A stretch of DNA of 64,000 nucleotides from a virus (taxonomy: Duplodnaviria > Heunggongvirae > Uroviricota > Caudoviricetes): the IMG/VR virus record IMGVR_UViG_3300026478_000263. One strand, written 5' to 3'. Positions within the stretch are counted from its first letter, which is position 1, and every line of letters starts with the position of its first letter. The notes under the pieces are model-generated. The model had not been told where the DNA came from. It ran no database searches and was given only the letters and a program-made list of their open reading frames with translations. The position numbers and the translations under genes are program-made. Shown piece by piece: positions 1,370 to 56,192 of this stretch.

Positions 1370-2737
1370 ATGCGATATCAAACTAGTGACAAACTAATTG
1401 CTTGGCTAACATTGTTCAGCGGATTAACCATATCCGCTGTAGCCATTTATTACAGCGTAGCGGGCCTAATGGCCATTTTCTCTGCGGCTGTTATTCCTAT
1501 CATTGTTATGGGTGTAGCCCTAGAAGTTAGTAAGTTAGCCGCAACTGTTTGGCTAAAACAAAATTGGTCCAGGGCACCTAACTTTATTAGAGGTTATCTA
1601 TTATCCGCTATTGCTATACTAATGCTTATTACCTCTATGGGTATTTTTGGTTTCTTATCCAAAGCACACAGTGACCAAAGTCTAGTAAGCGGCGATGTTC
1701 AAAGTAAGATTGCTATCTATGATGAAAAGATCAAAACCGAAAAAGAAAATATTGAAGCAAACCGTAAAGCACTTAAACAGATGGATGAAGGAGTGGACCA
1801 AGTATTGGGTCGCTCAGCAGATGAAAAAGGTGCCGACAAGGCTGTGGCTTTGCGTAAGTCCCAGCAGAAAGAACGTGCTAGACTTCAAGCAGAAATATCA
1901 CAGTCGCAGAAGTCTATCGCGGAACTTAATGATGCCCGTGCGCCTATTGCCGCCGAGGTACGCAAGGTCGAAGCCGAAGTTGGTCCAATTAAGTATATCG
2001 CATCGTTTGTCTATGGCGAGACAAATGAAACGATTTTAGAAAAAGCAGTTACCTGGGTAATCATTATTATTGTTATAGTATTTGACCCATTGGCTGTTAT
2101 TTTGTTGCTGGCTAGCCAATATAGTTTCCAATGGTTTAGGAAACAAGAAGAGGAAGAACCTGAGCCAGCGCCAATTGTGCCAACTCCAATTGATGCACAG
2201 AATGAACCTAAATACGAAGCAGACGATGGTCCATTAGTCGAAGAGCAAGTCGAACAGATTAAAGAAAGTGCTGATCCGCATCCAATTGGTTGGATGTATC
2301 CTAAACACGCAGACATCCAAAACTATCAAGTAGAAGATGCCGACGATGAAGATGCTGAAATAGTAGAACATGCTAGATCTTATATTCCAGAAGAAGAAAA
2401 GGACATTGTTGAAGACATTGGACTAGAGCAATGGAATAAAATGATTGAAGAAGCAGAACGCGAACTTGAAAAAGAAAAAGAAGCCAAGCGCATTTGGAAG
2501 GAACAGAATCCAGATGACACTATTAAGCATCAGGAAAAATTAAAAGAATCTGGTGTAATTGAAGAGTTACCTTGGAAGGAAACTTTGGACGAGCGTCCTG
2601 GGGATTATATATCCGAAGTAACAGGAGACAGATACAAGCCCGATCTTACAGAAGTCATAGAACCTGACAGTTCAAAAAAAAAGACAACCTACATAGTGAA
2701 GGAACAGAATCAACAAGTGACCAAGACCAAGGAGTAA
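1370..2737 (+). CDS. membrane-anchored coiled-coil protein with acidic C-terminal region
   Basis: 2-3 N-terminal TM helices, long coiled-coil, E/D-rich C-terminus; 455 aa. Confidence 0.5.
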   Translation: MRYQTSDKLIAWLTLFSGLTISAVAIYYSVAGLMAIFSAAVIPIIVMGVALEVSKLAATVWLKQNWSRAPNFIRGYLLSAIAILMLITSMGIFGFLSKAHSDQSLVSGDVQSKIAIYDEKIKTEKENIEANRKALKQMDEGVDQVLGRSADEKGADKAVALRKSQQKERARLQAEISQSQKSIAELNDARAPIAAEVRKVEAEVGPIKYIASFVYGETNETILEKAVTWVIIIIVIVFDPLAVILLLASQYSFQWFRKQEEEEPEPAPIVPTPIDAQNEPKYEADDGPLVEEQVEQIKESADPHPIGWMYPKHADIQNYQVEDADDEDAEIVEHARSYIPEEEKDIVEDIGLEQWNKMIEEAERELEKEKEAKRIWKEQNPDDTIKHQEKLKESGVIEELPWKETLDERPGDYISEVTGDRYKPDLTEVIEPDSSKKKTTYIVKEQNQQVTKTKE

Positions 2738-2774: not shown

Positions 2775-3167
2775 ATGGCAGAGAATACAAAGAAGAAAAT
2801 CAAAATCATAACCGCTCCGGATCGTATATACGATCAAAGTCAAACAATGCTAGTTATTACTCCTAGCGACACACTCAAAGACGCTGTACAGGAATATGCT
2901 TTAGACTGTAGTGAACACTTAAACATATATCTGTACACAGGCGACGAAGACAACATAGCATGGTTACTCAGCGTAGCCAATTCCGTCGACACTATTCTTA
3001 TAGATATGGATAATAGTCCTGTAAGTATAAGCCAGTTCTTTGCTTACATTTTGAGTATTCCTACTACATACTATAGATGCACGAATATGCAAGCACCTTG
3101 GGATTTAATAAATAAAAATCGTTTTTACGACTTTCCAAAATTAACAGAGGAAGATAATGAGGGATAA
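2775..3167 (+). CDS. hypothetical protein
   Basis: intact ORF in operon context. Confidence 0.4.
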   Translation: MAENTKKKIKIITAPDRIYDQSQTMLVITPSDTLKDAVQEYALDCSEHLNIYLYTGDEDNIAWLLSVANSVDTILIDMDNSPVSISQFFAYILSIPTTYYRCTNMQAPWDLINKNRFYDFPKLTEEDNEG

Positions 3168-3390
3168 ACAACTACGTGGTAGTGGAGTTACTGTAAAAGA
3201 CGGTGAACCCGTTGAAAGAGCTCTACGCCGTTTCAAAAAGAAAATACAGGATAGCGGATTATTGCAGGAACTAAGAGATCGCGAGTTCTATGAAAAGCCA
3301 ACAACTGCTCGTAAGCGAGCAAAGTCTGCGGCTAAGAATCGTTGGCAAAAAGAACTGCGTAAACAACAACTACCTAAAAAAATGTATTAA
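3157..3390 (+). CDS. rpsU: 30S ribosomal protein S21
   Basis: 77 aa; motif ALRRFKKK...LQELRDREFYEKPTTARKRAKSAA matches bacterial S21 almost residue for residue. Confidence 0.85.
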   Translation: MRDKQLRGSGVTVKDGEPVERALRRFKKKIQDSGLLQELRDREFYEKPTTARKRAKSAAKNRWQKELRKQQLPKKMY

Positions 3391-3392
3391 AA

Positions 3393-3677
3393 ATGGACGA
3401 ACAAAATAACGAAGTTATGGACATTCTGCAGGAAGAGTGTGCAGAAGTTATTCAAGCAGTAAGTAAAATTAGGCGTTTTGGCATAGACAATGCTAAACAC
3501 GGAACAGAGCAGACCAATCGACAGCACCTAGAAGAAGAACTAGGGGATATGCTGGCTATGATTGATATACTAATGATCAACGAAGTAGTCAGTTGGGGCA
3601 AATTGCACGAAGCAAAAAGGGCAAAAGTCGAAAAGTTAAAAAAATGGTCTAAAATACCAAATTTAGATAAAATCTGA
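3393..3677 (+). CDS. MazG-like nucleotide pyrophosphohydrolase (small)
   Basis: EExxE...EELGD motifs typical of MazG/HisE all-alpha NTP-PPase. Confidence 0.5.
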   Translation: MDEQNNEVMDILQEECAEVIQAVSKIRRFGIDNAKHGTEQTNRQHLEEELGDMLAMIDILMINEVVSWGKLHEAKRAKVEKLKKWSKIPNLDKI

Positions 3678-3694
3678 TATAAATAATTTTGTAG
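3676..3694 (+). promoter_or_regulatory. T4-type late promoter motif GATATAAATAATTTTGTAG
   Basis: TATAAATA core at 3678-3685; near-identical copy at 33150-33168. Confidence 0.4.
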
Positions 3695-3767
3695 AACGCC
3701 AATAGGGTTTTACGAAACGGGCAGTTGCCCACAATTAAAATCTTGCTTAATTATAAGGAGAAATGTT

Positions 3768-5633
3768 ATGAGCAAAGTCATCGGTATCGACTTGGGTACT
3801 ACCAATTCATGCGTAGCAGTCATCGAGTCAGGAAATTCCAAAGTTATTGAAAACAGCGAAGGTGCAAGAACTACACCTAGTATTGTTGCCTATTCTACAG
3901 ACGAAGTACTTGTAGGTGCTAGTGCTAAACGTCAAGCAGTAACAAATCCCAAAAACACAATCTATGCGGCCAAGCGTCTTATTGGACGTAAGTTCAAAGA
4001 ACAGGCTGTACAAAAAGATATTGACCTAATGCCTTACGAAATCATGGAATCCAAGAATGGAGATGCATGGGTTCGCGCACAGGGTAAAGAATTAGCACCT
4101 CCGCAGATTAGTGCTGAAGTTCTGCGTAAGATGAAAAAGACAGCAGAGGATTATTTAGGTGAAAAAGTTACTCAAGCAGTTATCACAGTTCCCGCATACT
4201 TTAATGACAGCCAAAGACAGGCAACTAAGGATGCTGGAAAAATCGCAGGCTTGGAAGTATTGCGTATTATTAACGAGCCTACTGCGGCAGCTCTTGCTTA
4301 TGGTGTTGATAAAAACGACAAAGCAGATCGCAAAGTTGCTGTTTATGACCTTGGTGGTGGTACTTTCGATGTATCGATCATTGAAATTGCCAACGTGGAT
4401 GGCGAAAAACAAATCGAAGTACTAAGCACTAACGGCGACACATTCTTAGGTGGTGAAGACTTTGACCAACGTATTATGGACTACTTGGTCGACGAGTTTA
4501 AGAAAGAGTCAGGCATGAACCTTAAGAAAGACATGTTGGCCTTACAACGTCTAAAAGAAGCCGCTGAAAAAGCCAAGATTGAGTTATCTAGCAGTGCCAG
4601 CACTGATGTTAACTTACCTTACATCACAGCAGACGCAAGTGGTCCTAAGCACATGAATGTTAAGATTACTCGTGCTAAGTTAGAAGCATTGGTAGAAGAA
4701 CTAATCCAACGTAGTATCGAACCATGTAAGGTTGCTATGAAGGATGCAGGTGTTACTCCATCAGAAATTGACGAAGTTATTCTTGTTGGTGGGCAAACAC
4801 GTATGCCCAAGGTACAAGAAGCAGTTGAAAAACTATTCGGTAAGGCTCCACGCAAAGACGTTAACCCAGACGAAGCAGTAGCAGTTGGTGCGGCTATTCA
4901 AGGTTCAGTACTAGCAGGTGATCGTACAGACGTTCTATTGTTAGACGTAACACCATTGTCACTAGGCATTGAAACTATGGGAGGTGTGTTTACTAAACTT
5001 GTACAAAAGAACACAACTATACCTACTAAGGCTAGCCAAGTGTTTAGCACAGCAGAAGATAATCAACCAGCAGTTGATATCAAAGTAGCACAAGGCGAGC
5101 GTGAACTATTCCAATACAACAAACTCCTGGGTGAGTTTAAGTTAGACGGTATTGCTCCAGCACGTCGTGGCACTCCACAGATTGAAGTTACATTTGACAT
5201 CGATGCTAACGGCATTATGAAAATTAGTGCTAAAGATAAAAACACCGGCAAAGAAAATCAAATCACAATTAAGAGTGACAGTGGTCTAAGCAAAGAGCAG
5301 ATCGAACAAATGGTTCGTGATGCAGAAGTTAATGCCGAATCAGATAAGAAGGCACGTGAACTTATCGATGCTAGGAACACAGCCGAGGCGTTGATCAACA
5401 ATGTTGAAAACGACATGAAAGAAACAACACTTTCAGACACAGATAAAACAAAGATCGAAGATGCTGTTAAAGCACTTCAAACAGAATTGACAGGTTCTGA
5501 CAAAGACGCTATCGTACAAAAGACTAGCGAACTAGCAGTGGCCAGTCAAGCGATTGCACAGGCCAAACAGGACAAGCCATTTGAACCTGTTCAGGAAGAT
5601 GCAATCAATGCCGAGTTTAAGGAAACAAACTAA
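3768..5633 (+). CDS. dnaK: chaperone DnaK (Hsp70)
   Basis: [19 protein letters not shown]-terminus, full-length Hsp70 ATPase and substrate-binding domains, 621 aa. Confidence 0.95.
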
Positions 5634-5699
5634 ACTCGTTATGTAGGGTGCCCGGGTGGGGCCCTACTAAAATTCTTGCTTAATTAAAGGAGATATAAA

Positions 5700-6146
5700 A
5701 TGACACAATTAACACGTTTTGACACAGCCGCTCTAAACAGAGCATTAATCGGTTTCGACAATCTATTCGATACTTTCGAAACACGCTTTGCACATCAGAT
5801 TTCGAACAACTATCCTCCATATAATATTGAAAAGTCTGGAGAAAACCAGTATAATATAGTTGTTGCTGTAGCAGGATTCGGTAAAGATGAAGTTGCAGTA
5901 GAAGTGGAAGGTGATCAATTAACTATTCGCGGCGAGAAGGCAATCAATGCTAACGAAGGCGAATACCAAGTTGAGTACTTACACAGAGGTCTTGCTTTCC
6001 GTGATTTCGAACGTAGATTTACTCTAGCAGAACACATGGAAATCAAGTCAGCAGAAATTAAGGATGGTGTGCTTACAATTCAAATCGAGCGCATTGTTCC
6101 TGAAGCACTTCTGCCACGTAAGATTGAAGTGAAAGAAGTTAAGTAA
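5700..6146 (+). CDS. small heat shock protein (Hsp20/IbpA-like)
   Basis: alpha-crystallin domain pattern (GVLTIQI...); 148 aa; shares leader motif with dnaK. Confidence 0.8.
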   Translation: MTQLTRFDTAALNRALIGFDNLFDTFETRFAHQISNNYPPYNIEKSGENQYNIVVAVAGFGKDEVAVEVEGDQLTIRGEKAINANEGEYQVEYLHRGLAFRDFERRFTLAEHMEIKSAEIKDGVLTIQIERIVPEALLPRKIEVKEVK

Positions 6147-6201
6147 AAAATCGGGGGCTCCGGCCCCCACTAATAAATACCATTAAGAATGGAGGGCCAA
6201 T

Positions 6202-6510
6202 ATGCCAACTGTAGACACCGAAATTAAAATTGACGAAAAGATTAAAATCGATATCACTGAACCTAAGCGTTACAAGGTATTGTTTTTAAATGATAACAAA
6301 ACTCCAATCGACTTTGTTATTGAATTACTAATGACTGTGTTTAAGCACTCCAGAGAAAATGCTGAACAGATTACATTAACTGTACACAATGAAGGTTCAG
6401 CAGTAGTAGGTGTTTATACCTACGAGATCGCCGAGCAGAAAGGTGTTGAGGCAACACACCTTGCACGTCAAGCAGGCTTCCCATTACAAATTAAAGTGGA
6501 TTCCGAATGA
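6202..6510 (+). CDS. clpS: ClpS ATP-dependent Clp protease adaptor
   Basis: YKVLFLNDNKTPIDFVIELLMTVF...QITLTVHNEGSAVVGVYTYEIAEQK matches the ClpS core. Confidence 0.85.
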   Translation: MPTVDTEIKIDEKIKIDITEPKRYKVLFLNDNKTPIDFVIELLMTVFKHSRENAEQITLTVHNEGSAVVGVYTYEIAEQKGVEATHLARQAGFPLQIKVDSE

Positions 6511-7061
6511 GTCTAAAAGAACTTACACACGAGCAACATCGCAGAGCAGAAACAAGGCCTTTTGTTAAAGTCTTATTTTCAGGAAATGTAAATCCTAAAC
6601 TATACGCAACATATCTAAAAAATCAACATCCAATGTATGAGATTTTAGAAGTCTGTGCTATGCCACATGGATTACTTTCCGGTCTACCAGAGATACGCAG
6701 AGCACCTGCAATTTTATCTGACTTCATAGAACTATGGGGCTCAGACAATCCTGAAGAACCAAAAATGTGTCCGGTAGTGGATGAATATATCAAATATATT
6801 CTCAGCATCAAAGATGATCCTAAAAAGTTGATGGCACACATTTATGTACGTCACATGGGAGATTTATCAGGCGGTCAAATGATTGCTAAAAGAGTTCCAG
6901 GCAGTGGCAAATACTATCAGTTTGGAGACGAACCTGAAAAGATCAAAGAAGCAATTCGTGCAAAACTAGATGATAGTCTAGCAGATGAAGCAAGAGTATG
7001 TTTTGATTTTGCGGCAAAATTCTTTGATCAAATGATGGATATAGTTCCACACTATGAGTAA
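6507..7061 (+). CDS. heme oxygenase
   Basis: LKELTHEQHRRAE proximal-His motif and overall HO-fold length (184 aa); immediately upstream of bilin reductase. Confidence 0.7.
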   Translation: MSLKELTHEQHRRAETRPFVKVLFSGNVNPKLYATYLKNQHPMYEILEVCAMPHGLLSGLPEIRRAPAILSDFIELWGSDNPEEPKMCPVVDEYIKYILSIKDDPKKLMAHIYVRHMGDLSGGQMIAKRVPGSGKYYQFGDEPEKIKEAIRAKLDDSLADEARVCFDFAAKFFDQMMDIVPHYE

Positions 7062-7734
7062 AGTATGGGACACGCTGATTGAAGTTCAGCATCTTTTAGA
7101 AAGCAGTTTTAATGAAACAGGAACAGAAATCTTTGAACCGGGCATGGATCGCTTTAATCAGCCTGGTTGGGTTAATCGTGTTTGGACCAGTGGGTCTTAT
7201 CGCCGTGCTCACGTTGATGTTGTGGATGCTAGAGAAACCAAAGGACTCTGGATGATGCATTGTTGCATCTTCCCACACTTACACAATCCAGCACCAATTT
7301 ACGGCTTTGACGTTGTAGCAGGCAAGAATAAGATTACTGGCTGTTTTCATGATTACAGCAAAGCAGGAGATTCTAATCATCCTATGATGGAATGGTTTGC
7401 TGATTATGTTAAACGACTCGAATGGCGCAGAGAACGCCAACTACCAGAATGGGCTACCAACATATTCAGCCCTAGCATGGTAGCCGCAGGTAATGTGCAG
7501 AGCGAAGAAGAACTAGCGCAGATTATAGAAATGGCTAAAGATACACTGGCACATTACTTAGAAACTGTAGCAGAAACTAATAATACTACTGAAAATACCA
7601 CAGAAGCGCAGAACTACTACGCAATCAATCAAAAATGTAACCCACATACTCCACGTGTAATGGCTAGTTTAGGCTTAGATGAAGAGGATGTTAGGGTATT
7701 CATACAGGAATGTTTGTTCCCAGAAATTCGCTAA
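7054..7734 (+). CDS. ferredoxin-dependent bilin reductase (PcyX/PcyA/PebS family)
   Basis: FDBR family signature region (WMMHCCIFPH, DVVAGKNK); 226 aa; coupled to heme oxygenase. Confidence 0.75.
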   Translation: MSKVWDTLIEVQHLLESSFNETGTEIFEPGMDRFNQPGWVNRVWTSGSYRRAHVDVVDARETKGLWMMHCCIFPHLHNPAPIYGFDVVAGKNKITGCFHDYSKAGDSNHPMMEWFADYVKRLEWRRERQLPEWATNIFSPSMVAAGNVQSEEELAQIIEMAKDTLAHYLETVAETNNTTENTTEAQNYYAINQKCNPHTPRVMASLGLDEEDVRVFIQECLFPEIR

Positions 7735-10364: not shown

Positions 10365-11054
10365 ATGTTTGGTGCAAGTTACACAGGTACTGGAATTTAC
10401 CGTTCAGCCGCACAGATCAATGAAGCAATGGGTCGTGTCTATGGACACATGAGCCTAGCAGTTCTTGTGTCTATGATTGTTAGTTACTTTGTAGGTACTA
10501 GCCCAGAATTGTTACAATTCTTCTTTACAGGTGTAATGAAGTGGATTGTAATTTTTGCACCACTGGTTGCTATCTTTGGTGTTAGCATGGTACTATCTAA
10601 TAACCCTAGTAAACAAGTCGCCCAACTATGCTTACATGGTTTTGCGGCATTAATGGGTTTGAGCTTTGCTACAATTTTTGCTATCTTTACCATGGGCAGT
10701 ATTGTTAGTGCGTTTATGGGTGCGGCGATCTTGTTTGGTACAATGAGCTTCTATGGATACTTTACAAAACGTAGTTTGGAAAGTCTTGGACAGTTTATGT
10801 TCATTGGATTGATTGCTATTGTTATTGCCAGTATTGTTAACATCTTTATTGGTAGTAGTGTAATGGCCATGGTTATCAGTGCATTAGCAATTATTATCTT
10901 TCTAGGATTAACTGCTTACGATACACAGCAAATACGAGAAATGGTTTCAATCGACTCTGATCCTGCAACCGAAGTAACAGGTGCATTAACACTATATATG
11001 GATTTTATTAATCTGTTCATTAATTTACTACAGTTGTTTGGTGATAGAAAATAA
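10365..11054 (+). CDS. Bax inhibitor-1/YccA family membrane protein (FtsH modulator)
   Basis: 7 predicted TM helices, 229 aa, C-terminal AYDTQQI...LYMDFINLF motif characteristic of the BI-1/YccA family. Confidence 0.8.
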   Translation: MFGASYTGTGIYRSAAQINEAMGRVYGHMSLAVLVSMIVSYFVGTSPELLQFFFTGVMKWIVIFAPLVAIFGVSMVLSNNPSKQVAQLCLHGFAALMGLSFATIFAIFTMGSIVSAFMGAAILFGTMSFYGYFTKRSLESLGQFMFIGLIAIVIASIVNIFIGSSVMAMVISALAIIIFLGLTAYDTQQIREMVSIDSDPATEVTGALTLYMDFINLFINLLQLFGDRK

Positions 11055-11168: not shown

Positions 11169-11708
11169 ATGAAAAAACTATTATCACTTATAGCATTATT
11201 GCCTATGATTGTATCGGCAGCACCTTTAGGTGATTACACCTTTAAGAGTCCTGCCTTTAACGGCGTAGGTTACAGCAGTCATGTATTAACCATTGAGAAT
11301 CAAGAGCGCACACGTCAGAAAGAACGTGCAGATAAACTACAGGCTGAAATTGACAAAGCAGCCGCAGATAAGAAAAACACCAACCTTGCTAAGTTTGTTA
11401 GTAACTTAGAATCACGTATCTATGCACAGATTAGTCAGAACGTAGCAACCGCTATGTTTGCCAATAACAACTGTACAGCAAGTAGCAACACAAACTGTTC
11501 TGGCAACATTGACTTCCAGGGCAACTATATTAGTTGGGGCAGAGTTAGTAGTGCTAACGATGCTAACTGTTCAACAGCCTACGGATACTGCATTATGTTA
11601 AAGATTGCAGATCCTACAGCCACTAACCCAAGTACAGCATCATGCACAGACACTGGAATGAGTTGTGTGTATGTTCCATTAAGTTCATTCCAAATGCCGG
11701 GGAACTAA
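11169..11708 (+). CDS. csgF: CsgF-like curli assembly protein (secreted)
   Basis: signal peptide; YTFKSPAFNGVG resembles CsgF FQFRNPNFGG motif; downstream QISQNV segment resembles CsgF; directly upstream of csgG. Confidence 0.55.
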   Translation: MKKLLSLIALLPMIVSAAPLGDYTFKSPAFNGVGYSSHVLTIENQERTRQKERADKLQAEIDKAAADKKNTNLAKFVSNLESRIYAQISQNVATAMFANNNCTASSNTNCSGNIDFQGNYISWGRVSSANDANCSTAYGYCIMLKIADPTATNPSTASCTDTGMSCVYVPLSSFQMPGN

Positions 11709-11711
11709 GAC

Positions 11712-12881
11712 ATGAAAAAGACAATACTATCCCTAGCAGTTTTAACTATGCTTTCAGGTTGTGCTGTTATGCAGACAACTGGAGTACTAGACAAGAGTCC
11801 TGAAGTTACAGGGCAAATGACTAATGTTAAGAAAGAATTTGATACAATACCTAGTCCAATCGCTGGAAGACCACTAAGCGTGGCCGTTTATAGTTTTACT
11901 GATAAAACAGGTCAACGTAGACCGCAGGCAAACATTGCCAGTTTATCAACAGCAGTGACACAGGGTGCAGAAACATTCTTAATACAGGCATTACAAAATG
12001 TAGGACGCGGTCAATGGTTCGACGTTGTAGAACGTGTGGGCATTGATAACCTAACTAAAGAACGTTTAATTATTAGGCAAATGCGCGAAGCATATGAAGG
12101 TAAAGATGCTAAACCATTGCTACCAATGCAATTCGCTGGAATTATTGTAGAAGGCGGAATAGTAGGCTACGATCAAAGCACTACCAGCGGTGGTGTAGGT
12201 CAACGTATATTTGGCATAGGCAAAAATACACAGTGGAGCACTGATACAGTAACAGTAAGTTTACGAGCAGTTAGCGTAAACACTGGTAAGGTATTAGCCA
12301 CAGTGACAGTACAAAAGACTATCTTAAGTTCAGCAGACAGCGTATCTGCATTAAAATTCTTTGACGCAGGCACTAAGGCATTTGAAGCAGAAGCAGGTTT
12401 AACTATCAATGAACCTGGCACTTACGCTACAAAGGCAACTATTGAAATGGCAGTCGTAGAGTTAATTAAGGAAGGACAACGTAAAGGTGTATGGGAGTTT
12501 AAACCAGAATCCGCACCAGCGGCCAAGGCACCTGTACCAGCACCAGCGGCCCAGCCGGTAATTAGCTCTGAGATTAAAGAAGAAGTTAAAGTAGAGGAGA
12601 AGAAAGATGTCGTGGTTCAATCACAAACCAAATCCGAAACCGAAACCAAGGCCGTACCCAGTACCGCCGCAAAAGAACTAGAGAAGTTACCTACAGAAGC
12701 AATTCTAAAGGATGCTCAGTTTATATACAAGGAGCCAAACGAAAAGAGTCAAAGGACTTGGCAGTTTAAGCCAAATACACGAGTATTCATAACCGGGAGC
12801 GAAGGTGATTGGGTACAAGTGCAGGACGTAGAGAAGCGTAAAGGGTTTGTTAAAAAAGAAGTAGTTAACAAACAAAAATAA
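11712..12881 (+). CDS. csgG: CsgG curli secretion channel lipoprotein with C-terminal SH3b-like extension
   Basis: lipobox LSGC; long blocks nearly identical to E. coli CsgG (IIVEGGIVGYDQSTTSGGVGQRIFGIGKNTQW...LRAVSVNTGKVL...KTILS); extra Pro/Ala linker plus ~70 aa GDWVQVQ domain. Confidence 0.9.
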   Translation: MKKTILSLAVLTMLSGCAVMQTTGVLDKSPEVTGQMTNVKKEFDTIPSPIAGRPLSVAVYSFTDKTGQRRPQANIASLSTAVTQGAETFLIQALQNVGRGQWFDVVERVGIDNLTKERLIIRQMREAYEGKDAKPLLPMQFAGIIVEGGIVGYDQSTTSGGVGQRIFGIGKNTQWSTDTVTVSLRAVSVNTGKVLATVTVQKTILSSADSVSALKFFDAGTKAFEAEAGLTINEPGTYATKATIEMAVVELIKEGQRKGVWEFKPESAPAAKAPVPAPAAQPVISSEIKEEVKVEEKKDVVVQSQTKSETETKAVPSTAAKELEKLPTEAILKDAQFIYKEPNEKSQRTWQFKPNTRVFITGSEGDWVQVQDVEKRKGFVKKEVVNKQK

Positions 12882-12964
12882 GAAAGAGAGGTAGCACTTT
12901 AAATTTTTTAATGGTCTTAGACCAAGGAGCGAGTTAGGGAAGATAACCTAATTCTGTAAAAACG

Positions 12965-13939
12965 ATGCATAAGAGAATCACAGGCGCTGGTGGGTTGTCG
13001 AGAAAATTACTCACAATTCTGGTGTTGTCTGCAATGACAACATTGGGTTATGCGGCTGACAATAGCATTTACATTGATCAGTCCGGCGATAATAGTACTA
13101 TTACTATGACTCAAGACGGAGCAGGAAACAAAGTAAAGGGTATATTATTAAATGGCACAGCAGGTGGAACAACTGATCCTGCTAAACTAACTGGTGCCGC
13201 ACAGACTATCAACATTGAGCAAACAGGAGCAACTAACGTATTGGCGTTAGGTGTTAACTCAACACAAGGTGGTACTGTACAAGGTTATGCTAATATTGGT
13301 GTGAATTTAAATTACCAAGTAAGTGGTGGTGGAAACACAGGTTACATTAATATTAACAATAATGGTACAGGCACAGCCAGTGGTAACGTTGTTAGTTTTG
13401 TTCAAAGTGGCGGTAGTGCAACTACAACACTTAACATGACTGGTACAAGTAACCAATTAACTGTTGGAACTAGTGGTGGTGCTAACAACACATTTACAGG
13501 TACAATCAACGCTGATGAAACTGTAGCAACTGTTAGTCAAACAGGTGGCGGCGGCAACGCAACTACACTTAACATGACCGGAAACAAAGGTCAAGTTAGT
13601 CTAACAACTGTTGGTGCAACTAACACTACATCTGTAACACAGAGTGCATACGGTGTAACTGGTGCTCAAGCAATTATCAACATCACAGGTTCTGGTAATA
13701 CTACAGACGTAACACAAACTGGTGCGTACGATCACTATGCTAGTATTACTGTAACAGGCGGTAGCAATGGCATTACACTTGCACAAACAGGTGGATCTGC
13801 TACTGGACACAGCACAACGTTATCTGTAACAGGTAGTACTAATACTATTGGTATTACACAACAAGGATCAGTTAGCAATCTAACTAATCTTGCTATATCA
13901 GGAAGTGGCAACACTTACACTATTTTACAGAAAAACTAA
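12965..13939 (+). CDS. curlin-repeat (CsgA/CsgB-like) secreted protein
   Basis: signal peptide; many degenerate repeats of type xTQxGxxNxxxxxxxGxxN (e.g. VTQTGAYD..., ITQQGSVSN...) typical of curlin subunits; Gly/Thr/Asn/Gln-rich. Confidence 0.7.
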   Translation: MHKRITGAGGLSRKLLTILVLSAMTTLGYAADNSIYIDQSGDNSTITMTQDGAGNKVKGILLNGTAGGTTDPAKLTGAAQTINIEQTGATNVLALGVNSTQGGTVQGYANIGVNLNYQVSGGGNTGYININNNGTGTASGNVVSFVQSGGSATTTLNMTGTSNQLTVGTSGGANNTFTGTINADETVATVSQTGGGGNATTLNMTGNKGQVSLTTVGATNTTSVTQSAYGVTGAQAIINITGSGNTTDVTQTGAYDHYASITVTGGSNGITLAQTGGSATGHSTTLSVTGSTNTIGITQQGSVSNLTNLAISGSGNTYTILQKN

Positions 13940-13948
13940 GAGGGTTCC

Positions 13949-15055
13949 ATGAAATTATGGATGGTAGTATTATGCGTTCCGTTGCTGAGTACATCGTTGG
14001 CCTACGCCGCGATAGGCAAAGTAACGGAACAAATCAATACACCCCCGACTATCCAGAGACAGAATTCGACACTAACGGCGTCGAAAGGGACTGGAGTGGA
14101 AATGAACGATGCGATCAAGACCCAGCAGGGCAAGGTGGGGATAACATTTGAGGACGATACTAAAGTCCAAGTCAATGAAAATTCTAAACTTGTAATTGAT
14201 GATTTCGTTTATGATCCAAAAAGTAAGGCGGGTAAACTAGGTGCTAAGATTGCTCTTGGCACAGTTCGTTATGCGTCTGGACAGATTGCTAAGAATTCGC
14301 CTCAGAATGTGGCCCTTTCTACTCCTAGTGCTACTGTTGCTGTACGCGGTACTGACTTTACTGCCACTGTAGACGAGCTAGGCGAAAGTACAATTATTCT
14401 TTTACCTAGTTGTCCTAATGATAGACCAACACGCTCAGTTAGAGATATTGAAACTAACTGTAAGACTGGCAGTATTGAAGTTAGCAATGATGTAGGTACT
14501 GTAATACTAAATCAACCCTTCCAAGTAACTAAAGTTCAAAGTAGAACACAACCTCCTACACCGCCTAAAGTATTAAATCTAAGTGAAATGGCCATTGGCA
14601 ATATGTTAATTGTCAGTCCTCCGCGCGAAGTCAAACAAGCACAACAAGAACAACAGAGAACATTTAATGCTTTAGACTTTGACTTTTTAAAAGAGAAAGG
14701 TTTGGAGAATTATTTAGATATGCAGGCCAATATGATTTATGAAGATAAGTTAGCCAAAAACTTTTTGTCTAATGATTTCCTTGCTAACTTATTCGACATT
14801 GTGGGAAACATACTGGATCAAAAGTTTTTAGATCCTGTAGATCCTGTGCTACCAGACTATAAAAAGTCCAGTGGCATTATAGCCTACAAAGATGATATGA
14901 GTGTTGAACTCTGTCGCGACAACGGTGCTGACATACAATGTGTTAAAACACCACTCACACAAAACTCAACAATATTACAAACACAGGGCAATTTAGAATT
15001 TAAGAACAGAATAAATCAGGGAGGTAATACTATTATTACCTTGATACAAAAATGA
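13949..15055 (+). CDS. secreted hypothetical protein (curli-cluster associated)
   Basis: signal peptide; beta-rich; sits between curlin-repeat genes, ATGA overlap with downstream gene. Confidence 0.4.
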   Translation: MKLWMVVLCVPLLSTSLAYAAIGKVTEQINTPPTIQRQNSTLTASKGTGVEMNDAIKTQQGKVGITFEDDTKVQVNENSKLVIDDFVYDPKSKAGKLGAKIALGTVRYASGQIAKNSPQNVALSTPSATVAVRGTDFTATVDELGESTIILLPSCPNDRPTRSVRDIETNCKTGSIEVSNDVGTVILNQPFQVTKVQSRTQPPTPPKVLNLSEMAIGNMLIVSPPREVKQAQQEQQRTFNALDFDFLKEKGLENYLDMQANMIYEDKLAKNFLSNDFLANLFDIVGNILDQKFLDPVDPVLPDYKKSSGIIAYKDDMSVELCRDNGADIQCVKTPLTQNSTILQTQGNLEFKNRINQGGNTIITLIQK

Positions 15056-17607: not shown

Positions 17608-18140
17608 GAGCAAAAGAATTTATAAAAGAAGCAGAAGCAAGTGACGCCGATTTAAAAGCAAGATATGGTGACTTCGATCCTGAAGATAAAATAATGCTTC
17701 CAACTACAAAATTAAGCAGAGAACCTGCAGCCACGCTTTGGACAGCATATGATGTAGTTAGAAATATTCTAGGTAGAGATAGAGTAACTGACGATGATGA
17801 CGAATTAGGTCCTGGAATGTATTATGTCTACCAGAGTAGCGGAGATCCAATGTTTAGGGATACAGGCGACGGCGTTGGCAGTATCAACTTACCAAATCTA
17901 GACAGCACCGCGGCACGAGACGTTGCTGTTGCGGCCCACGAAGCATATCACGCTTATGTACACGCTAAAAGTAAAGGCGGCTTTGCACACGCTAATGAAA
18001 AGATTATTAACAACTTAGCAGAAAAATGGTTGCGTAAACATTTATCAGGACAAGCCTTACATACAGCATTAGAACAAATTATAGGCAGTAGAATTAGTTA
18101 CGGCCGCAACCACTTACCAAAGCCAGGATTTAAAAAATGA
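17604..18140 (+). CDS. putative injected zinc metalloprotease with T4-like capsid-targeting N-terminus
   Basis: starts MRAKEFIKEAE (internal Met of track ORF 17460..18140); contains HEAYH (HExxH) motif. Confidence 0.5.
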   Translation: MRAKEFIKEAEASDADLKARYGDFDPEDKIMLPTTKLSREPAATLWTAYDVVRNILGRDRVTDDDDELGPGMYYVYQSSGDPMFRDTGDGVGSINLPNLDSTAARDVAVAAHEAYHAYVHAKSKGGFAHANEKIINNLAEKWLRKHLSGQALHTALEQIIGSRISYGRNHLPKPGFKK

Positions 18141-22900: not shown

Positions 22901-23188
22901 ATGTCACAAGCACACGTTCAGAAGTTCGAAGCATCTATGTTTGAGTATTGCTCGGACCATGCCGAAAGGGCATACAAGTTATTTGAAGATGGAGAAGTAG
23001 ATGTTGGATTGGAAAGATTAGGCCATTTAGCAGATATACTCCAAATGTTAAAAAGTTCTAAAAGTTCAAACGGAACTATTAACATTAATACATTTGCACA
23101 AGAAGTAAAAGCATTAGATGAAATAGATAAAGATGCCGTATACACACACTTCCAAGAGAACGGCTTTGGACAATATATACCGGAGTGA
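22901..23188 (+). CDS. hypothetical protein
   Basis: ORF downstream of strong promoter; ATGA overlap with clpP. Confidence 0.4.
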   Translation: MSQAHVQKFEASMFEYCSDHAERAYKLFEDGEVDVGLERLGHLADILQMLKSSKSSNGTININTFAQEVKALDEIDKDAVYTHFQENGFGQYIPE

Positions 23189-23748
23189 AAATGAAAAAAA
23201 TTGATGAGTTCAATGCGGAAGATAGAATTGATCTTAGATTACTGGAAAATTCTACTTTTTATTTGAATGGAGAGATAGATGAAGATACAGTAGGCGAAGC
23301 CATCAAATGGATTCTCTATGAAAATTTACAAGGCGAAGGTAGAACTTTGACCTTGTATATTAACAGCACGGGCGGAGATTTGTATCAGGCTCTAGCGTTA
23401 ATTGATGTAATGCGTAGCAGTCCACATATTGTAAGAACTATTGGAATTGGTGCTGTCATGAGTGCGGCATTTTTAATTTTTGCCTGCGGTGATAAAAAGC
23501 ATCGTTATGCGGCTAGTAATACTAGTTTTATGTGTCACCAATTTACATCCGGAATGGATGCTAAGTATCACGACCTAAAAGCAGAAATGAAAGAAACCGA
23601 ATTGTTAAATGAAAAGATGATAACAATTCTAACCGAAACAACAGGCTTGGTTAAAAGTAGAGTTAAAGCAAAACTACTACCAGCCAGCGATGTTTACCTA
23701 ACTGCACAAGAAGTGGTTGACTTTGGGGTAGCGGATCATATAGTATAG
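23185..23748 (+). CDS. clpP: ClpP-family serine protease subunit
   Basis: 187 aa; GIGAVMSAAFLIFACGDKKHRYAASNTSFMCHQ matches ClpP catalytic Ser/His region. Confidence 0.8.
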   Translation: MKMKKIDEFNAEDRIDLRLLENSTFYLNGEIDEDTVGEAIKWILYENLQGEGRTLTLYINSTGGDLYQALALIDVMRSSPHIVRTIGIGAVMSAAFLIFACGDKKHRYAASNTSFMCHQFTSGMDAKYHDLKAEMKETELLNEKMITILTETTGLVKSRVKAKLLPASDVYLTAQEVVDFGVADHIV

Positions 23749-24723: not shown

Positions 24724-24881
24724 GTTATAAGTGTCCTGTCTGTGAAAGTGAGAAACAATATAGCAACAAGTACGATGCGTATTTTTGCGAGTTGTGTAAT
24801 AAGTGGCTAGAAGAACCGTGCAAGGATCCAGAGTGTCAATTCTGTACTACACGGCCAGAAAAGCCCAGCCAAGTTGGCTAA
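24714..24881 (+). CDS. small zinc-ribbon protein (55 aa), not in ORF track
   Basis: MDISYKCPVCESEKQ...CELCNKW...CQFCT: two CxxC pairs; ATGA overlap with upstream gene. Confidence 0.3.
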   Translation: MDISYKCPVCESEKQYSNKYDAYFCELCNKWLEEPCKDPECQFCTTRPEKPSQVG

Positions 24882-24913
24882 AAGTAATAAACATAATAAC
24901 AAGGAGAAACATT

Positions 24914-25114
24914 ATGGCAACAAACAGATTTCAAGATTTTTCAAAACTAATCGAAGCCGCAGAAGGTGACTTTGAAAAGTTCTATGACAAGGGTGTTAAT
25001 GCCGCAGGTACTCGTGTTCGCAAGCACTTACAAGAGTTAGCCAAACTATGTAAAGAAGTTCGTAACGATGTAACCGCAGTAAAGAACGAACGTAAAGAAT
25101 CCGCAGGTAAGTAA
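24914..25114 (+). CDS. small basic alpha-helical protein
   Basis: AAGGAG RBS 8 nt upstream of ATG at 24914 (internal Met of track ORF 24803..25114). Confidence 0.4.
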   Translation: MATNRFQDFSKLIEAAEGDFEKFYDKGVNAAGTRVRKHLQELAKLCKEVRNDVTAVKNERKESAGK

Positions 25115-25972: not shown

Positions 25973-26551
25973 ATGCAGTACAATGAATTTTTAGATTGGG
26001 TAGATATTGACAAGTTTTCAGATGCTTGTAATAACATCTGTCATCAGACAGTATTAAATGAATCCACAAATCGAATGATGAAAGAAAAATTCATTATTGC
26101 GGCAATGCAATTATCTAATCATAAAAAGAACATCGAGTGGACTGACGTTCGCGATTACGATATAAAATTTACCGATTGGACCAATGGCGACGTAGAAGTT
26201 AAAACTGGCAACGAACCTTTGTTCTACGCAAAGTCAGGAACTCCTAAAAAGACAATCAGTCTTAAATTAAAAAATGTTTACGAAAGTAAGAATCAAAGAA
26301 CTACACTAGACAAAGTTTTTAATCATTTAATGATAGTCCAAATTAAAGGAACATTCGCTGTTGCCTTTGTAGATTACGCAACAGTTAAGGCTAATCTAAA
26401 ACAATTAACAGACGGCTTCTTAGTCAAACTAACACACGACCAAATAAATATTGTGTACAAAAAAGATATGAGAAATGAACCGACATCTTGGACAATTGAC
26501 TTAGATCCAAAACCTTGGATATTTGGCACATTAGCAAAGGCAGGCGTTTAA
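25973..26551 (+). CDS. hypothetical protein
   Basis: 192 aa intact ORF. Confidence 0.4.
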   Translation: MQYNEFLDWVDIDKFSDACNNICHQTVLNESTNRMMKEKFIIAAMQLSNHKKNIEWTDVRDYDIKFTDWTNGDVEVKTGNEPLFYAKSGTPKKTISLKLKNVYESKNQRTTLDKVFNHLMIVQIKGTFAVAFVDYATVKANLKQLTDGFLVKLTHDQINIVYKKDMRNEPTSWTIDLDPKPWIFGTLAKAGV

Positions 26552-26885
26552 AGAATTGTTGTAATCCCTTCAAAGCGAAGGACTTCTGGACGCGGGTTCG
26601 ACTCCCGCCAGGTCCACCATAAGGACATAAATTTACTTTGGTATTCATTGTAAATTTACTTTGGTATTGTGTTTTTATGATGGGCCTGCCATGGTTTCGA
26701 CAGGGGTAGATAGTAGAGACGGCAACACGGTAGGCGATGACCGTAAATCAAGCAAAACTAGTAAATGCAAACGCATCTACATTTGAGTACTTCACTGTTG
26801 AAGGCTTCACAGCCGACAATGGTCTAGTAGCAGCCTAAGAAACTGCAACTCCGGGGTAGGACTTACCTTGTAACCCAAACAACCA
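26552..26885 (+). ncRNA. ssrA: circularly permuted (two-piece) tmRNA
   Basis: acceptor piece 26552-26619 ends GGACGCGGGTTCGACTCCCGCCAGGTCCACCA (T-arm + CCA); coding piece starts GGGCCUG at 26682, which pairs with CAGGUCC giving a G3-U70 wobble; tag frame ends ...GLVAA then TAA at 26836. Confidence 0.6.
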
Positions 26886-26910
26886 AAGGGCCTTCGGGCC
26901 CTTTTTTATT
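26886..26910 (+). terminator. rho-independent terminator
   Basis: GGGCCTTCGGGCCC hairpin + TTTTTTATTTT; identical hairpin reused at 35323. Confidence 0.75.
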
Positions 26911-26922
26911 TTACCAAACACA

Positions 26923-26951
26923 TTGACAGATGCCCTGTCCGAGCCTATAAT
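26923..26951 (+). promoter_or_regulatory. sigma70 promoter TTGACA-17-TATAAT
   Basis: perfect consensus hexamers. Confidence 0.6.
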
Positions 26952-28393: not shown

Positions 28394-28422
28394 TTGACAG
28401 ACCACAGTTCATTTGCTATAAT
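28394..28422 (+). promoter_or_regulatory. sigma70 promoter TTGACA-17-TATAAT
   Basis: consensus; lies inside the first 23 codons of track ORF 28394, so the real start is 28463. Confidence 0.55.
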
Positions 28423-55806: not shown

Positions 55807-55980
55807 ATGAACGAATCAAAAACGTACACGGTAGAGGAAATATTCGAAGACATACCTGGAGATCCAGATAATGTCATGTTCAAAATTCCTCCTGAAATCT
55901 GTGAAAAAATGGGATGGAAAGAAGGAGATAAAATTCATATCTCCGTAACCGATGGTCGTATGATCTTTACTAAAGAATGA
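55807..55980 (+). CDS. AbrB/SpoVT/MazE-like small DNA-binding protein (57 aa), not in ORF track
   Basis: [17 protein letters not shown] swapped-hairpin-like motif; AAGGAT RBS; ATGA overlap with infA. Confidence 0.35.
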
Positions 55981-56192
55981 GCAAAAGCGATTTATTAGAA
56001 ATGGAAGGATCCATTTCTGAAGTATTACCTAGCAATATGTTTAGGGTAACTTTGGAAAATGGGCATGTTCTTACTTGCTACACTAATGGCCGACTGCGCC
56101 AAAATAAAATCAAAATCATCTTGGGCGACAAAGTTCGGATTGAAATGAGCCCTTACGATTTGTCCAAAGGCCGAATTACATACCGCCTTTGA
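55977..56192 (+). CDS. infA: translation initiation factor IF-1
   Basis: 71 aa; [64 protein letters not shown] aligns along the full length of bacterial IF-1. Confidence 0.85.

Follow-up and report, generated by a model that had tools for sequence, protein, structure and literature searches.

Gene content of the locus

The window, by which we mean the whole 64,000-nt stretch of DNA analysed, which comes from a large freshwater phage, carries a contiguous series of plus-strand genes at the positions given by an earlier note, and further genes of translation and proteostasis elsewhere. The gene calls rest on Pfam, NCBIfam and PHROG profile matches.

1370..2737, +, conserved membrane/coiled-coil protein, 455 aa; upstream neighbour of the cassette, in the same position in 60/80 related loci
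2775..3167, +, orf130, conserved gene; 11-nt overlap with the S21 start
3157..3390, +, ribosomal protein bS21, 77 aa (PF01165 5e-21; TIGR00030 72.5 bits vs cut-off 29)
3393..3677, +, MazG-like NTP pyrophosphohydrolase domain protein, short, 94 aa (PF03819 29.3 bits vs 22; PHROG 4856 9e-22)
3768..5633, +, DnaK (Hsp70), full length, 621 aa (HSP70 2e-257; NF001413 973 bits vs 648; TIGR02350 above cut-off)
5700..6146, +, Hsp20/alpha-crystallin small heat-shock protein, IbpA-like (PF00011 8e-19)
6202..6510, +, ClpS adaptor, 102 aa (PF02617 1e-29)
6507..7061, +, heme oxygenase (PF01126 4e-23), its ATG sharing bases with the stop of clpS (ATGA)
7054..7734, +, ferredoxin-dependent bilin reductase, PcyA/PcyX-like (PF05996 2e-16)
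23185..23748, +, divergent ClpP-family peptidase (PF00574 4e-33; NCBIfam models under cut-off; Ser-His-Asp aligned with E. coli ClpP)
26466..26929, +, tmRNA, betaproteobacterial type, permuted into two pieces; tag peptide ends in LVAA (ARAGORN; Rfam RF04321/RF01850)
55977..56192, +, translation initiation factor IF-1 (PF01176 5e-23; TIGR00008 100.7 bits vs 61)

Family matches of the 455-aa protein were all below threshold. Alignment with E. coli S21 showed that the bS21 is extended at its N terminus by a short basic stretch and ends in Tyr. The top NCBIfam match of Hsp20 was IbpA at 126 bits, under the cut-off of 212, and every NCBIfam equivalog model for ClpS was under its cut-off. Among the ClpS residues that correspond to the pocket and the ClpA contact of the E. 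coli protein, N34, D35, T38, H66 and E79 were invariant and K84 was present in 67/73 sequences.

The five genes named in the earlier note (S21, MazG-like, DnaK, Hsp20 and ClpS) were all supported by these searches, although the block it delimited at 3157-7061 ends with a heme oxygenase that it had not named. Its ClpP, IF-1 and tmRNA assignments also held. Its Hsp90-like ATPase, in contrast, was rejected in favour of rIIA (28394-30625; PHROG 612, 2e-138), and its ClpX-like AAA+ protein (26988-28067) lacks the ClpX zinc finger and matched only a generic phage AAA ATPase, PHROG 2376. The described density of translation and proteostasis cargo thus loses these two members, but the window remains rich, with S21, IF-1, tmRNA, 33 tRNAs, DnaK, Hsp20, ClpS and ClpP. 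Since there are reports of large phages encoding each of S21, IF-1, tmRNA, ClpS, ClpP, Hsp20 and DnaK (PMC7162821, PMC7824862, PMC12619734), the density alone is not new.

Promoter-like boxes and leaders of the chaperone genes

The intergenic regions of the locus carry short elements, which were compared with those of 80 related IMG/VR viral contigs of up to 383 kb.

3108..3114, +, ATAAATA box, late-promoter-like, 49 nt before the S21 start
3678..3685, +, TATAAATA box, matching the late-promoter consensus of T4 type, 89 nt upstream of the ATG of dnaK
3691..3730, +, dnaK leader, two predicted stem-loops at 3691-3713 and 3719-3730 (RNAfold MFE)
3741..3761, +, ROSE-like element of dnaK: UCUUGCUU, loop, AAGGAGA (Shine-Dalgarno, SD) (R1 25.1 bits, E 7.8e-5)
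5643..5667, +, stem-loop P1 of the hsp20 leader (RNAfold; covariation in 9/10 pairs, 91 distinct sequences)
5674..5693, +, ROSE-like element of hsp20: UCUUGCUU, AAUUA loop, AAGGAGA (R1 73.6 bits, E 1.6e-18)
6152..6179, +, GC-rich stem-loop 6152-6169 and ATAAATA box 6173-6179, ahead of clpS

Thus S21, dnaK and clpS are each preceded by a NATAAATA box like those of late promoters in the T4 family, and such late promoters are known from T4-like cyanophages (PMC2984593). Of 67 distinct dnaK upstream regions, 65 carried the ATAAATA box, with a median distance of 80 nt, and in 1.39 Mb of related loci it occurred 297 times on the plus strand vs 22 on the minus strand. Further copies lie at 1356, 14 nt upstream of the 455-aa membrane/coiled-coil gene, and at 26444, ahead of the tmRNA. 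Motif and strand bias together suggest that these boxes may serve as late promoters.

The dnaK and hsp20 leaders share one design, found in relatives also ahead of groES, in which UCUU[G/A]CUU stands opposite an AAGGAGA ribosome-binding site with a single bulged base. The exact 13-mer TCTTGCTTAATTA has two copies in the 64-kb window, ahead of dnaK and hsp20 only. When both strands of the 1.39 Mb were scanned for CT[TC][GA]CTT-N2-10-AGGAG-N3-13-ATG, all 162 matches were on the plus strand, preceding dnaK (83), hsp20 (75), groES (3) and one phasin-like ORF; the sole variable position was the predicted bulge (G in 93, A in 40). A covariance model, R1, was built with the window left out of the seed. 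Searched with filters off, the window gave two R1 sites only, those in the two leaders, and the related loci gave 114 matches, each ending at a dnaK or hsp20 ATG except for one at a phasin-like ORF. R1 had no match ahead of dnaK in the bacterial loci listed. In a scan of viral contigs, 120/123 motif matches were ahead of Hsp20, DnaK or GroES, and the same design precedes hsp20 in the cultured cyanophages S-RSM4, P-SSM2 and S-RIM2, in Pelagibacter phage HTVC115P and in a PA5oct-like Pseudomonas phage.

Stem-loop P1 was strongly supported by covariation: nine of its ten pairs show compensatory changes, 95.6% of cells are paired as opposed to 51-64% in slid registers, and its covariation score is 0.359 vs 0.121 in shuffles (0/500). 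The dnaK leaders of relatives have equivalent hairpins of different sequence. Downstream of P1, the MFE fold of the hsp20 leader (RNAfold) is the SD hairpin with a bulged G. ROSE elements are defined by U(U/C)GCU facing the SD with a bulged G (PMC11342760), and the leaders, lying behind a stem-loop with strong covariation, look like this RNA-thermometer signature. About a third of them have a bulged A rather than the canonical G; in another ROSE-like element, which is functional, the bulge is a U (PMC4152365).

On this pattern we infer that the leaders sense temperature. The dnaK and hsp20 mRNAs would start with one or two stable stem-loops followed by a weak, bulged SD hairpin, which would keep synthesis of the phage chaperones low in the cold and open with rising temperature or folding stress. 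If so, the phage owns a heat-shock-type control that is independent of host sigma-32.

Alternatively, the leader could be a genuine conserved cis-element that is indifferent to temperature, either a translational operator (a RegA-type repressor site or chaperone feedback) or a 5' stabiliser that keeps translation low and constant. Since the SD/anti-SD helix does not vary, the alignment lends it no covariation support, and computed SD accessibility as a function of temperature did not separate the chaperone leaders from other cassette genes. In the window's dnaK leader, RNAfold pairs UUGCUUA with codons 1-3 (UGAGCAA) instead, so that the SD stays open. Rfam ROSE_3 scored the leaders at 19.6 to 33.6 bits (19.6 for the window's dnaK leader), under the threshold of 43, and in S-RSM4 and P-HM2 regA lies directly upstream of hsp20. 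Against such an operator or stabiliser, the leaders have the exact U(U/C)GCU, SD and single-bulge geometry by which ROSE-like thermometers are defined (PMC11342760), and apart from the one phasin-like ORF the element is restricted to heat-shock-type genes. Its helix is weak and rich in U.G pairs (MFE at 37 C -1.6 to -2.8 kcal/mol, and -5.4 without the bulge), of the kind that thermometers use, and ROSE_3 was the sole thermoregulator family among the weak Rfam matches, recurring on four separate leaders. We regard a temperature-independent element as possible, if doubtful.

Conservation and origin of the cassette

The arrangement recurs in the 80 related contigs, so it is more than chance. Hsp20 is directly 3' of DnaK in 71/76 of these relatives and ClpS directly 3' of Hsp20 in 72/72, while heme oxygenase follows ClpS in 54/67 and S21 lies no more than 2.5 kb upstream of DnaK in 55/67. 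The cassette described by the earlier note is therefore real. Its order is membrane protein, orf130, rpsU (S21), a variable slot (here MazG-like), dnaK, hsp20, clpS, heme oxygenase and bilin reductase, probably a conserved expression unit shared by large aquatic phages of one T4-like clade, whose hosts are probably Burkholderiales.

It is conceivable that the block is a hitch-hiking island of host-derived auxiliary genes, held together by common descent with no functional coupling, in which case the word "takeover" used in the earlier note would be unjustified. What lies between S21 and dnaK is hypervariable (an exonuclease, GMP reductase, MazG or GroES-GroEL), and these insertions show that S21 is tied only loosely to the chaperone genes; S21 of pelagimyophages has been reported outside any cluster (PMC7029224). 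The MazG-like gene adjoins dnaK in only 23/79 relatives, the heme oxygenase and reductase are missing in about 20%, and the two bilin-pathway genes, with no known link to proteostasis, do not fit the "translation and proteostasis" label. However, Hsp20-ClpS adjacency persists even where neighbouring proteins share just 40-60% identity, and it recurs in DnaK-less relatives, which keep the order S21-Hsp20-ClpS, as well as beside clpX in an unrelated Pseudomonas jumbo phage. Some relatives have additional proteostasis genes here, ClpX ahead of S21 and GroES-GroEL ahead of dnaK, and one regulatory leader is common to dnaK, hsp20 and groES. Mere hitch-hiking therefore seems unlikely to us.

A functionally coupled cassette would act through host partners. 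The phage DnaK would work with host DnaJ and GrpE, since neither is encoded nearby: E. coli queries for GrpE, J-domain, ClpA and SmpB had no match in the phage loci, and the GrpE and J-domain queries did detect the bacterial copies. Hsp20 would be a holdase feeding DnaK, ClpS would dock on host ClpA and redirect ClpAP, and S21 would enter host 30S subunits. "Takeover" is an interpretation, and the overall interpretation of the earlier note is partly supported.

The phylogeny of DnaK bears on the host origin that the earlier note had raised. In a neighbour-joining tree, all 81 of 81 phage DnaKs fell in one clade (mutual identity 74-92%) whose nearest neighbours were Burkholderiales. Among the matches listed, the bacteria closest to the window's DnaK, at up to 74.5% identity, were Limnohabitans, Polynucleobacter, Paracidovorax and Variovorax. 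The bacterial loci among these matches are of the grpE-dnaK-dnaJ type (grpE detected in 79/80 and dnaJ in 76/80 of the fetched stretches), and none of the 80 listed has S21, Hsp20 or ClpS near dnaK; the assembly is thus phage-specific. It appears that dnaK was captured once, from a betaproteobacterium and without grpE and dnaJ, and would have been inserted between S21 and hsp20. Since DnaK-less relatives carry S21-Hsp20-ClpS, this core is older than the DnaK clade. That the window is instead of cellular origin, bacterial or through mis-binning of a contig, with an ordinary bacterial stress locus is extremely improbable: every cassette protein has bacterial homologues and DnaK is 70-74% identical to Burkholderiales DnaK among the matches listed, but the window has rIIA (PHROG 612), a T4 Rnl1-like ligase (PHROG 562), a 31-gene tRNA array, GOLLD RNA, many ORFans and near-unidirectional genes, its relatives are 80 IMG/VR contigs of up to 383 kb, and the cassette is in none of the grpE-dnaK-dnaJ loci listed.

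Taken as a whole, we favour, with modest confidence, a conserved phage cassette with a captured dnaK, late-promoter boxes, ROSE-like leaders and host-partnered proteins.

Comparison with known systems

Like the cassette phages, huge phages with translation gene sets (Al-Shayeb et al. 2020, PMC7162821) and phages with bS21 (PMC6375957, PMC9723584) carry an N-terminally extended S21 together with IF-1, tmRNA and numerous tRNAs, and phage S21 is reported to be expressed late (PMC6375957, PMC9723584). Unlike in those sets, S21 here stands at the head of a conserved cassette that includes Hsp20 and ClpS (and DnaK). Those of the bS21 phages that have the gene in the structural module presumably infect Bacteroidota. 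That placement was reported in PMC9723584. Moraphages and Lak phages (PMC12619734) likewise have a full-length DnaK, sometimes with Hsp20. The moraphage DnaK, however, comes from Flavobacteriaceae, often with DnaJ, and large tRNA sets are absent (PMC12619734), whereas the present DnaK is of Burkholderiales type and DnaJ and GrpE were not found in its phage loci. Lak and huge-phage DnaKs are 49-57% identical to it.

Pelagimyophages and the T4-like Pelagibacter phage Mosig (PMC7029224, MT647606) share S21, a CsgF/CsgG curli cluster and T4-like features with the present phages, and Mosig also has the heme oxygenase and PcyX-like reductase pair (reductase 50% identical). Mosig, however, has no DnaK or ClpS beside its S21 and bilin genes. 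The present phages are larger than pelagimyophages and, judging by their DnaK and tmRNA, probably have betaproteobacterial hosts. PA5oct-like Pseudomonas jumbo phages (Arenbergviridae) have clpX ... hsp20-clpS on one strand, with hsp20 behind a hairpin and UCUUGCGU-AA-AGGAGA, but their locus lacks S21, DnaK and bilin genes and their Hsp20 is only 27% identical; the hsp20-clpS arrangement is either independent or very old.

The short ROSE-like thermometers of Pseudomonas ibpA (Rfam ROSE_3, RF02523; PMC3669281, PMC11342760) likewise lie in the 5' UTR of a small heat-shock gene, with an upstream stabilising hairpin followed by a U(U/C)GCU-SD hairpin with one bulge. The present element differs in being phage-encoded, in lying also before dnaK and groES, in its frequent bulged A and in scoring under the Rfam gathering threshold. 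ROSE elements are not known before dnaK or groES, and we found no description in the literature of an RNA-thermometer-like leader in phages. While the gene content itself is of a known kind, the regulatory leader shared by the chaperone genes is new; neither this leader nor the way in which the cassette was assembled in phages could be seen by the earlier note.

Gene content and conservation of the chaperone cassette

The earlier note described five contiguous genes at 3157-7061 as a translation and proteostasis takeover block. The genes are contiguous, but six ORFs occupy the interval, the sixth encoding a heme oxygenase. The cassette consists of the following features:

3157-3390, + strand, ribosomal protein S21 (TIGR00030, 72.5 bits, cut-off 28.95; PF01165, 74.6 bits, 5e-21)
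3393-3677, + strand, MazG-like protein of 94 aa (PF03819, 29.3 bits, cut-off 22; PHROG 4856, 9e-22)
3768-5633, + strand, full-length DnaK (HSP70, 2e-257; NF001413, 973 bits, cut-off 648; TIGR02350, 909 bits, cut-off 822.55)
5700-6146, + strand, Hsp20 (alpha-crystallin domain PF00011, 68.2 bits, cut-off 20.8, 8e-19)
6202-6510, + strand, ClpS (PF02617, 102.6 bits, cut-off 23, 1e-29)
6507-7061, + strand, heme oxygenase (PF01126, 4e-23), its start overlapping the clpS stop
7054-7734, + strand, ferredoxin-dependent bilin reductase, directly after the heme oxygenase

The five identities proposed from the sequence alone were thus recovered by profile searches. NF001413 and TIGR02350, the NCBIfam DnaK equivalogs covering NBD, SBD and lid, span DnaK residues 1-619. 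The MazG-like protein matches PF03819 at profile positions 4-40 of 74 alone. Hsp20 is IbpA-like yet scores under the NCBIfam equivalog cut-offs (126.5 bits versus 212 for IbpA; 120.4 versus 207 for IbpB), and ClpS is divergent because all eight NCBIfam ClpS equivalog models score under theirs. Outside the cassette, the calls of a ClpP at 23185 (divergent, with the Ser-His-Asp triad aligned), of IF-1 at 55977 and of a tmRNA were also right, the last being a permuted, betaproteobacterial-type RNA at 26466-26929. The tmRNA is a two-piece molecule with a long tag, ANASTFEYFTVEGFTADNGLVAA, and an ATAAATA box in front of it (26444-26929). Two other props of the takeover reading were wrong. The supposed Hsp90-like ATPase at 28463 is rIIA (PHROG 612, 2e-138 over the full length; HATPase_c at an E value of merely 0.006). 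The supposed ClpX-like AAA+ protein (26988-28067) has only generic AAA matches and one to PHROG 2376 'ATPase'; it lacks the ClpX zinc finger and gave no BLASTP hit against E. coli ClpX, while three relatives (L060, L064 and L069) encode true ClpX. The takeover reading is no more than plausible.

The window has a G+C content of about 41% and nearly all of its genes lie on the + strand. It is phage DNA, since it encodes rIIA, a T4 Rnl1-like RNA ligase and an ATP-dependent DNA ligase, carries many ORFs without a family match, has IMG/VR relatives on contigs of up to 383 kb, and contains 33 tRNA genes, 31 of which form one array at 37817-45473. The array encloses a full-length GOLLD RNA (41035-41498; Rfam, 207 bits) with a tRNA-Lys gene embedded at 41098-41171. 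A further tRNA at 32620-32693, isolated from the array, has the anticodon CTA and is of amber-suppressor type (ARAGORN label Pyl; Rfam tRNA, 38.4 bits). The exact window DnaK sequence is indexed in 74 blocks, some on contigs of 0.2-1 Mb, indicating that the same phage is present in many assemblies.

Megablast of the cassette block against the INPHARED phages returned no match, and relatives were therefore located through proteins. A DnaK search of viral contigs yielded 80 loci with DnaK 76-91% identical, in which the window proteins were placed by tblastn. Hsp20 lies immediately 3' of DnaK in 71 of 76 loci and ClpS immediately 3' of Hsp20 in 72 of 72; heme oxygenase follows ClpS in 54 of 67, the reductase follows heme oxygenase in 48 of 51, and S21 is found at most 2.5 kb upstream of DnaK in 55 of 67. 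MazG adjoins DnaK in 23 of 79 loci. S21 and dnaK are separated by a variable slot, which holds a DEDD exonuclease, GMP reductase, MazG or GroES-GroEL depending on the locus, and a true ClpX lies immediately 5' of S21 in four relatives; the locus has therefore repeatedly gathered proteostasis genes. The cassette, for which sharing by related phages had been the proposed check, is thus real, conserved and phage-assembled. Relatives with a true ClpX (zinc finger plus AAA_2) immediately 5' of S21, or with GroES-GroEL in the slot, include L060 (5397-6626), L064 (8487-9686), L040 (7922-9908) and L028 (about 11950).

Further cargo was seen in the window. A curli-like cluster at 11169-17445 comprises CsgF, a CsgG-SH3 fusion, two curlin-repeat proteins and a FecR-like protein; about 30 relatives keep it 3' of their cassette, and it is similar to that of pelagimyophages. 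Other genes of host type encode a Bax-inhibitor-1 membrane protein (10365-11054), a CHASE2-sensor adenylate/guanylate cyclase (18137-20188) and a chlamydial Hc1-type histone-like protein (24803-25114). The T4-like pelagimyophages (PMC7029224) have S21, the CsgF/CsgG curli cluster and the heme oxygenase-reductase pair in common with this phage. In gene content, the phage adds another member to the large-phage lineages already known to carry translation and chaperone genes of host type.

The phylogeny that the earlier note had suggested as a check of host origin was built by a distance method (neighbour-joining), with the bacterial set being the matches listed. The 81 phage DnaKs are monophyletic in this tree, with mutual identities of 74-92%. 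Among the matches listed, the closest cellular DnaKs are from Burkholderiales (Limnohabitans, Polynucleobacter, Paracidovorax, Variovorax), at most 74.5% identical to that of the window, in agreement with the betaproteobacterial type of the tmRNA. Moraphages were rejected as the source of DnaK because of the Flavobacteriaceae origin of their DnaKs and their different gene sets. In the 80 bacterial dnaK loci among the matches listed, grpE is present in 79 and dnaJ (J-domain) in 76 within the stretch fetched, and S21, Hsp20, ClpS or bilin genes are near dnaK in none. Queries that detected these bacterial copies found neither GrpE nor a J-domain in the window or the 80 phage loci, and the usual bacterial grpE-dnaK-dnaJ arrangement, which is typical but not defining, was not seen around phage dnaK. 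ClpA and SmpB were undetected in the phage loci, as was SmpB in the window.

Residues of the phage ClpS were examined in E. coli numbering. We take N34, D35, D36, T38, M40 and H66 to be the N-degron pocket and E79 and K84 to be contacts to the ClpA N-domain. In 73 phage ClpS proteins, N34, D35, T38, H66 and E79 are invariant and K84 is kept in 67. The window protein carries D36N and M40I, both minority states (D in 55 and M in 63 of the 73). These residues fit an adaptor that would dock on host ClpA and bind N-degrons, although its specificity may be altered. Hsp20 and ClpS are strictly paired, also in unrelated jumbo phages, and this points to a putative functional link between the holdase and the ClpAP adaptor during infection. 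In most relatives S21 bears a basic N-terminal extension of 7-11 residues; its last residue is Tyr or Phe.

A leader common to phage dnaK, hsp20 and groES

Directly 5' of both the dnaK and the hsp20 start, the window carries the 13-mer TCTTGCTTAATTA followed by the Shine-Dalgarno (SD) sequence AAGGAGA. Only these two exact copies of TCTTGCTTAATTA exist in the 64 kb. UCUUGCUU is complementary to AAGGAGA provided that the G bulges out. The pattern CT[TC][GA]CTT-N2-10-AGGAG-N3-13-ATG was searched on both strands of 81 phage loci (1.39 Mb). All 162 matches are on the + strand, before dnaK (83), hsp20 (75), groES (3) and one phasin-like ORF, and the leader adjoins no other start in this sequence. 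Among 133 distinct contexts, the predicted bulge is the sole variable position of the motif, being G in 93 and A in 40 (30%), with CUUGCUU in 91, CUCGCUU in 2, CUUACUU in 37 and CUCACUU in 3. AA precedes GGAG in 131 of the 133, and the loop is mostly 3-5 nt long and variable in sequence.

A covariance model was built from twelve hsp20 leaders, with the window left out of the seed. With filters off, its significant matches in the window number exactly two, one at the hsp20 leader with 73.6 bits (E value 1.6e-18) and one at the dnaK leader with 25.1 bits (E value 7.8e-5). In the related loci it gave 114 matches, all on the + strand and all ending at a dnaK or hsp20 ATG save that at the phasin-like ORF; it matched nothing before dnaK in the 80 bacterial loci among the matches listed. 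We consider it very probable that the leader is a functional cis-element. One marginal match in the bacterial loci (20 bits, E value 0.03) lies between dnaK and dnaJ at 6009-6066 of L131, a Burkholderiales MAG. Among the matches listed, the only non-chaperone genes behind the leader, seen at 18722-18783 of L050 and about 4184-4209 of L195, are small phasin-like ORFs (103 aa and 65 aa). In relatives with GroES-GroEL, groES bears the same ROSE-like leader.

The possibility that CTTGCTT is a sigma-32/sigma-70 promoter was ruled out: it lies 15-25 nt from the ATG, 5' of the conserved SD, and a matching -10 is absent. A different promoter-like element lies further upstream. In the related loci there are 297 copies of ATAAATA on the + strand and 22 on the - strand. 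Of 67 distinct dnaK upstream regions, 65 carry the box; its median distance to the ATG is 80 nt, and it lies a few bases 5' of the first hairpin. In the window it precedes a membrane protein gene, S21, dnaK (as TATAAATA at 3678), clpS and the tmRNA, and lies at two other sites. TATAAATA is not enriched in the window alone (3 found versus 4.9 expected); the signal emerged only with the shorter ATAAATA, which is strand-biased and conserved in relatives. As T4-like phages have NATAAATA/TATAAATA for a late promoter (PMC2984593), the boxes, oriented with the genes and at a promoter-like distance, may be T4-family late promoters. The annotation of the 64-kb window contains no gp55 or gp33 late transcription factor. 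Phage S21 is reported to be expressed late in another lineage (PMC9723584).

Occurrence of the leader beyond the clade

IMG/VR contigs were scanned for TCTTGCTT-N3-6-AAGGAGA-N4-10-ATG, which was found in at least 120 stretches. Among the 123 motif matches listed, 110 are before Hsp20 (two incomplete), 9 before DnaK (one incomplete) and 1 before GroES; one of the remaining three is before another phasin-like ORF and two are chance-like. Several loci (L173, L192, L254, L256, L195 and L196) have S21-Hsp20-ClpS without DnaK, and DnaK is present in 7 of the 79 leader-bearing Hsp20 loci with enough upstream sequence among the matches listed. This distribution points to S21-Hsp20-ClpS as the core of the cassette, into which dnaK would have been inserted later together with an hsp20-type leader copy.

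The same leader design stands 5' of hsp20 in cultured phages, namely the cyanophages S-RSM4, P-SSM2 and S-RIM2, a Pelagibacter phage and a PA5oct-like phage:

S-RSM4, hsp20 leader: a hairpin, then GUCGCUU...AAGGAC
P-SSM2, S-RIM2 and HTVC115P, hsp20 leaders: CUCGCUU...AAGGAG
PA5oct-like Pseudomonas phage, hsp20 leader: UCUUGCGU-AA-AGGAGA

As in the window cassette, clpS immediately follows hsp20 in the PA5oct-like phage, and clpX lies 1 kb upstream. In the record of this phage (Pseudomonas phage 30-3; L283, 146-3307), a single strand carries clpX, two small genes and the hsp20-clpS pair, with hsp20 and clpS annotated only as hypothetical proteins. The PA5oct omics paper mentions neither hsp20 nor clpS, and our literature search found no paper joining cyanophage, hsp20 and RNA thermometer. 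What this analysis adds is a ROSE-like, chaperone-specific leader that is common to phage hsp20, dnaK and groES and is found in cultured phages.

Leader folding and resemblance to ROSE thermometers

In the upstream stem-loop of the leader (P1), 9 of 10 pairs have undergone compensatory change and 95.6% of cells are paired, with a covariation score of 0.359 versus 0.121 in shuffles (0 of 500 reach it) and 51-64% pairing in slid registers; these statistics come from an alignment fitted to the model, and such fitting favours structure. The SD helix is 98.6% paired yet invariant, and for this reason covariation lends it no support. From a plain MAFFT alignment of the hsp20 leaders, RNAalifold retrieved the P1 core only, since differences in loop length misaligned the SD; the covariance model took its place. 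By RNAfold, the minimum-energy fold of the hsp20 leader is the bulged-G SD hairpin. For the window dnaK leader a competing fold is preferred, with UUGCUUA paired to codons 1-3. The dnaK leaders with CUUGCUU, including that of the window (3741-3775), start with AUG AGC/AGU AAA, whose complementarity to UUGCU creates the competing helix; those with CUUACUU start with AUG UCU/UCA AAG and the competing helix is absent.

Temperature modelling was not decisive. The SD accessibility computed with ViennaRNA over temperature for 65 dnaK and 62 hsp20 leaders did not discriminate them from eight control genes, because the controls were equally or more closed, and melting-temperature estimates of isolated SD hairpins were uninformative because a shuffled control gave an identical value. 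In Rfam, ROSE_3 is the sole thermoregulator family that recurs on the leaders. Its scores are under the gathering threshold of 43, being 19.6 bits for the window dnaK leader and 33.6, 26.1 and 23.9 bits for phage hsp20 leaders, and the window hsp20 leader has no ROSE_3 match; the threshold thus passes over the phage elements. We give the leader about an even chance of being an RNA thermometer.

We consider it an evenly balanced prospect that aquatic T4-like phages, and jumbo phages in some cases, possess a heat-shock regulon of their own, with chaperone translation switched by phage-borne ROSE-like thermometers. Its targets would be hsp20 generally and, in this clade, dnaK and groES-groEL too, and the supply of chaperones would be matched to temperature independently of the host sigma-32 response. 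If the leader works as its sequence suggests, temperature would directly tune phage chaperone translation in very abundant aquatic viruses, and the genes concerned would include cyanomyovirus hsp20, long counted among the auxiliary genes whose regulation is unclear. This would offer a concrete molecular handle on the water-temperature dependence of infection outcome and add dnaK and groES to the small heat-shock genes under ROSE-like control. The leader, rather than gene content alone, is what matters.

ROSE-like thermometers are marked by a U(U/C)GCU stretch whose imperfect pairing to the SD leaves a G bulged out (PMC11342760). The phage leaders share with them the location in the 5' UTR of heat-shock genes, the U(U/C)GCU-SD pairing with a bulge and the upstream hairpin. 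They differ in that the bulged base, G in ROSE (PMC11342760), is A in 30% of the phage copies. A base other than G at this position is not disqualifying, since a bulged U is on record for a ROSE-like thermosensor of cyanobacteria (PMC4152365).
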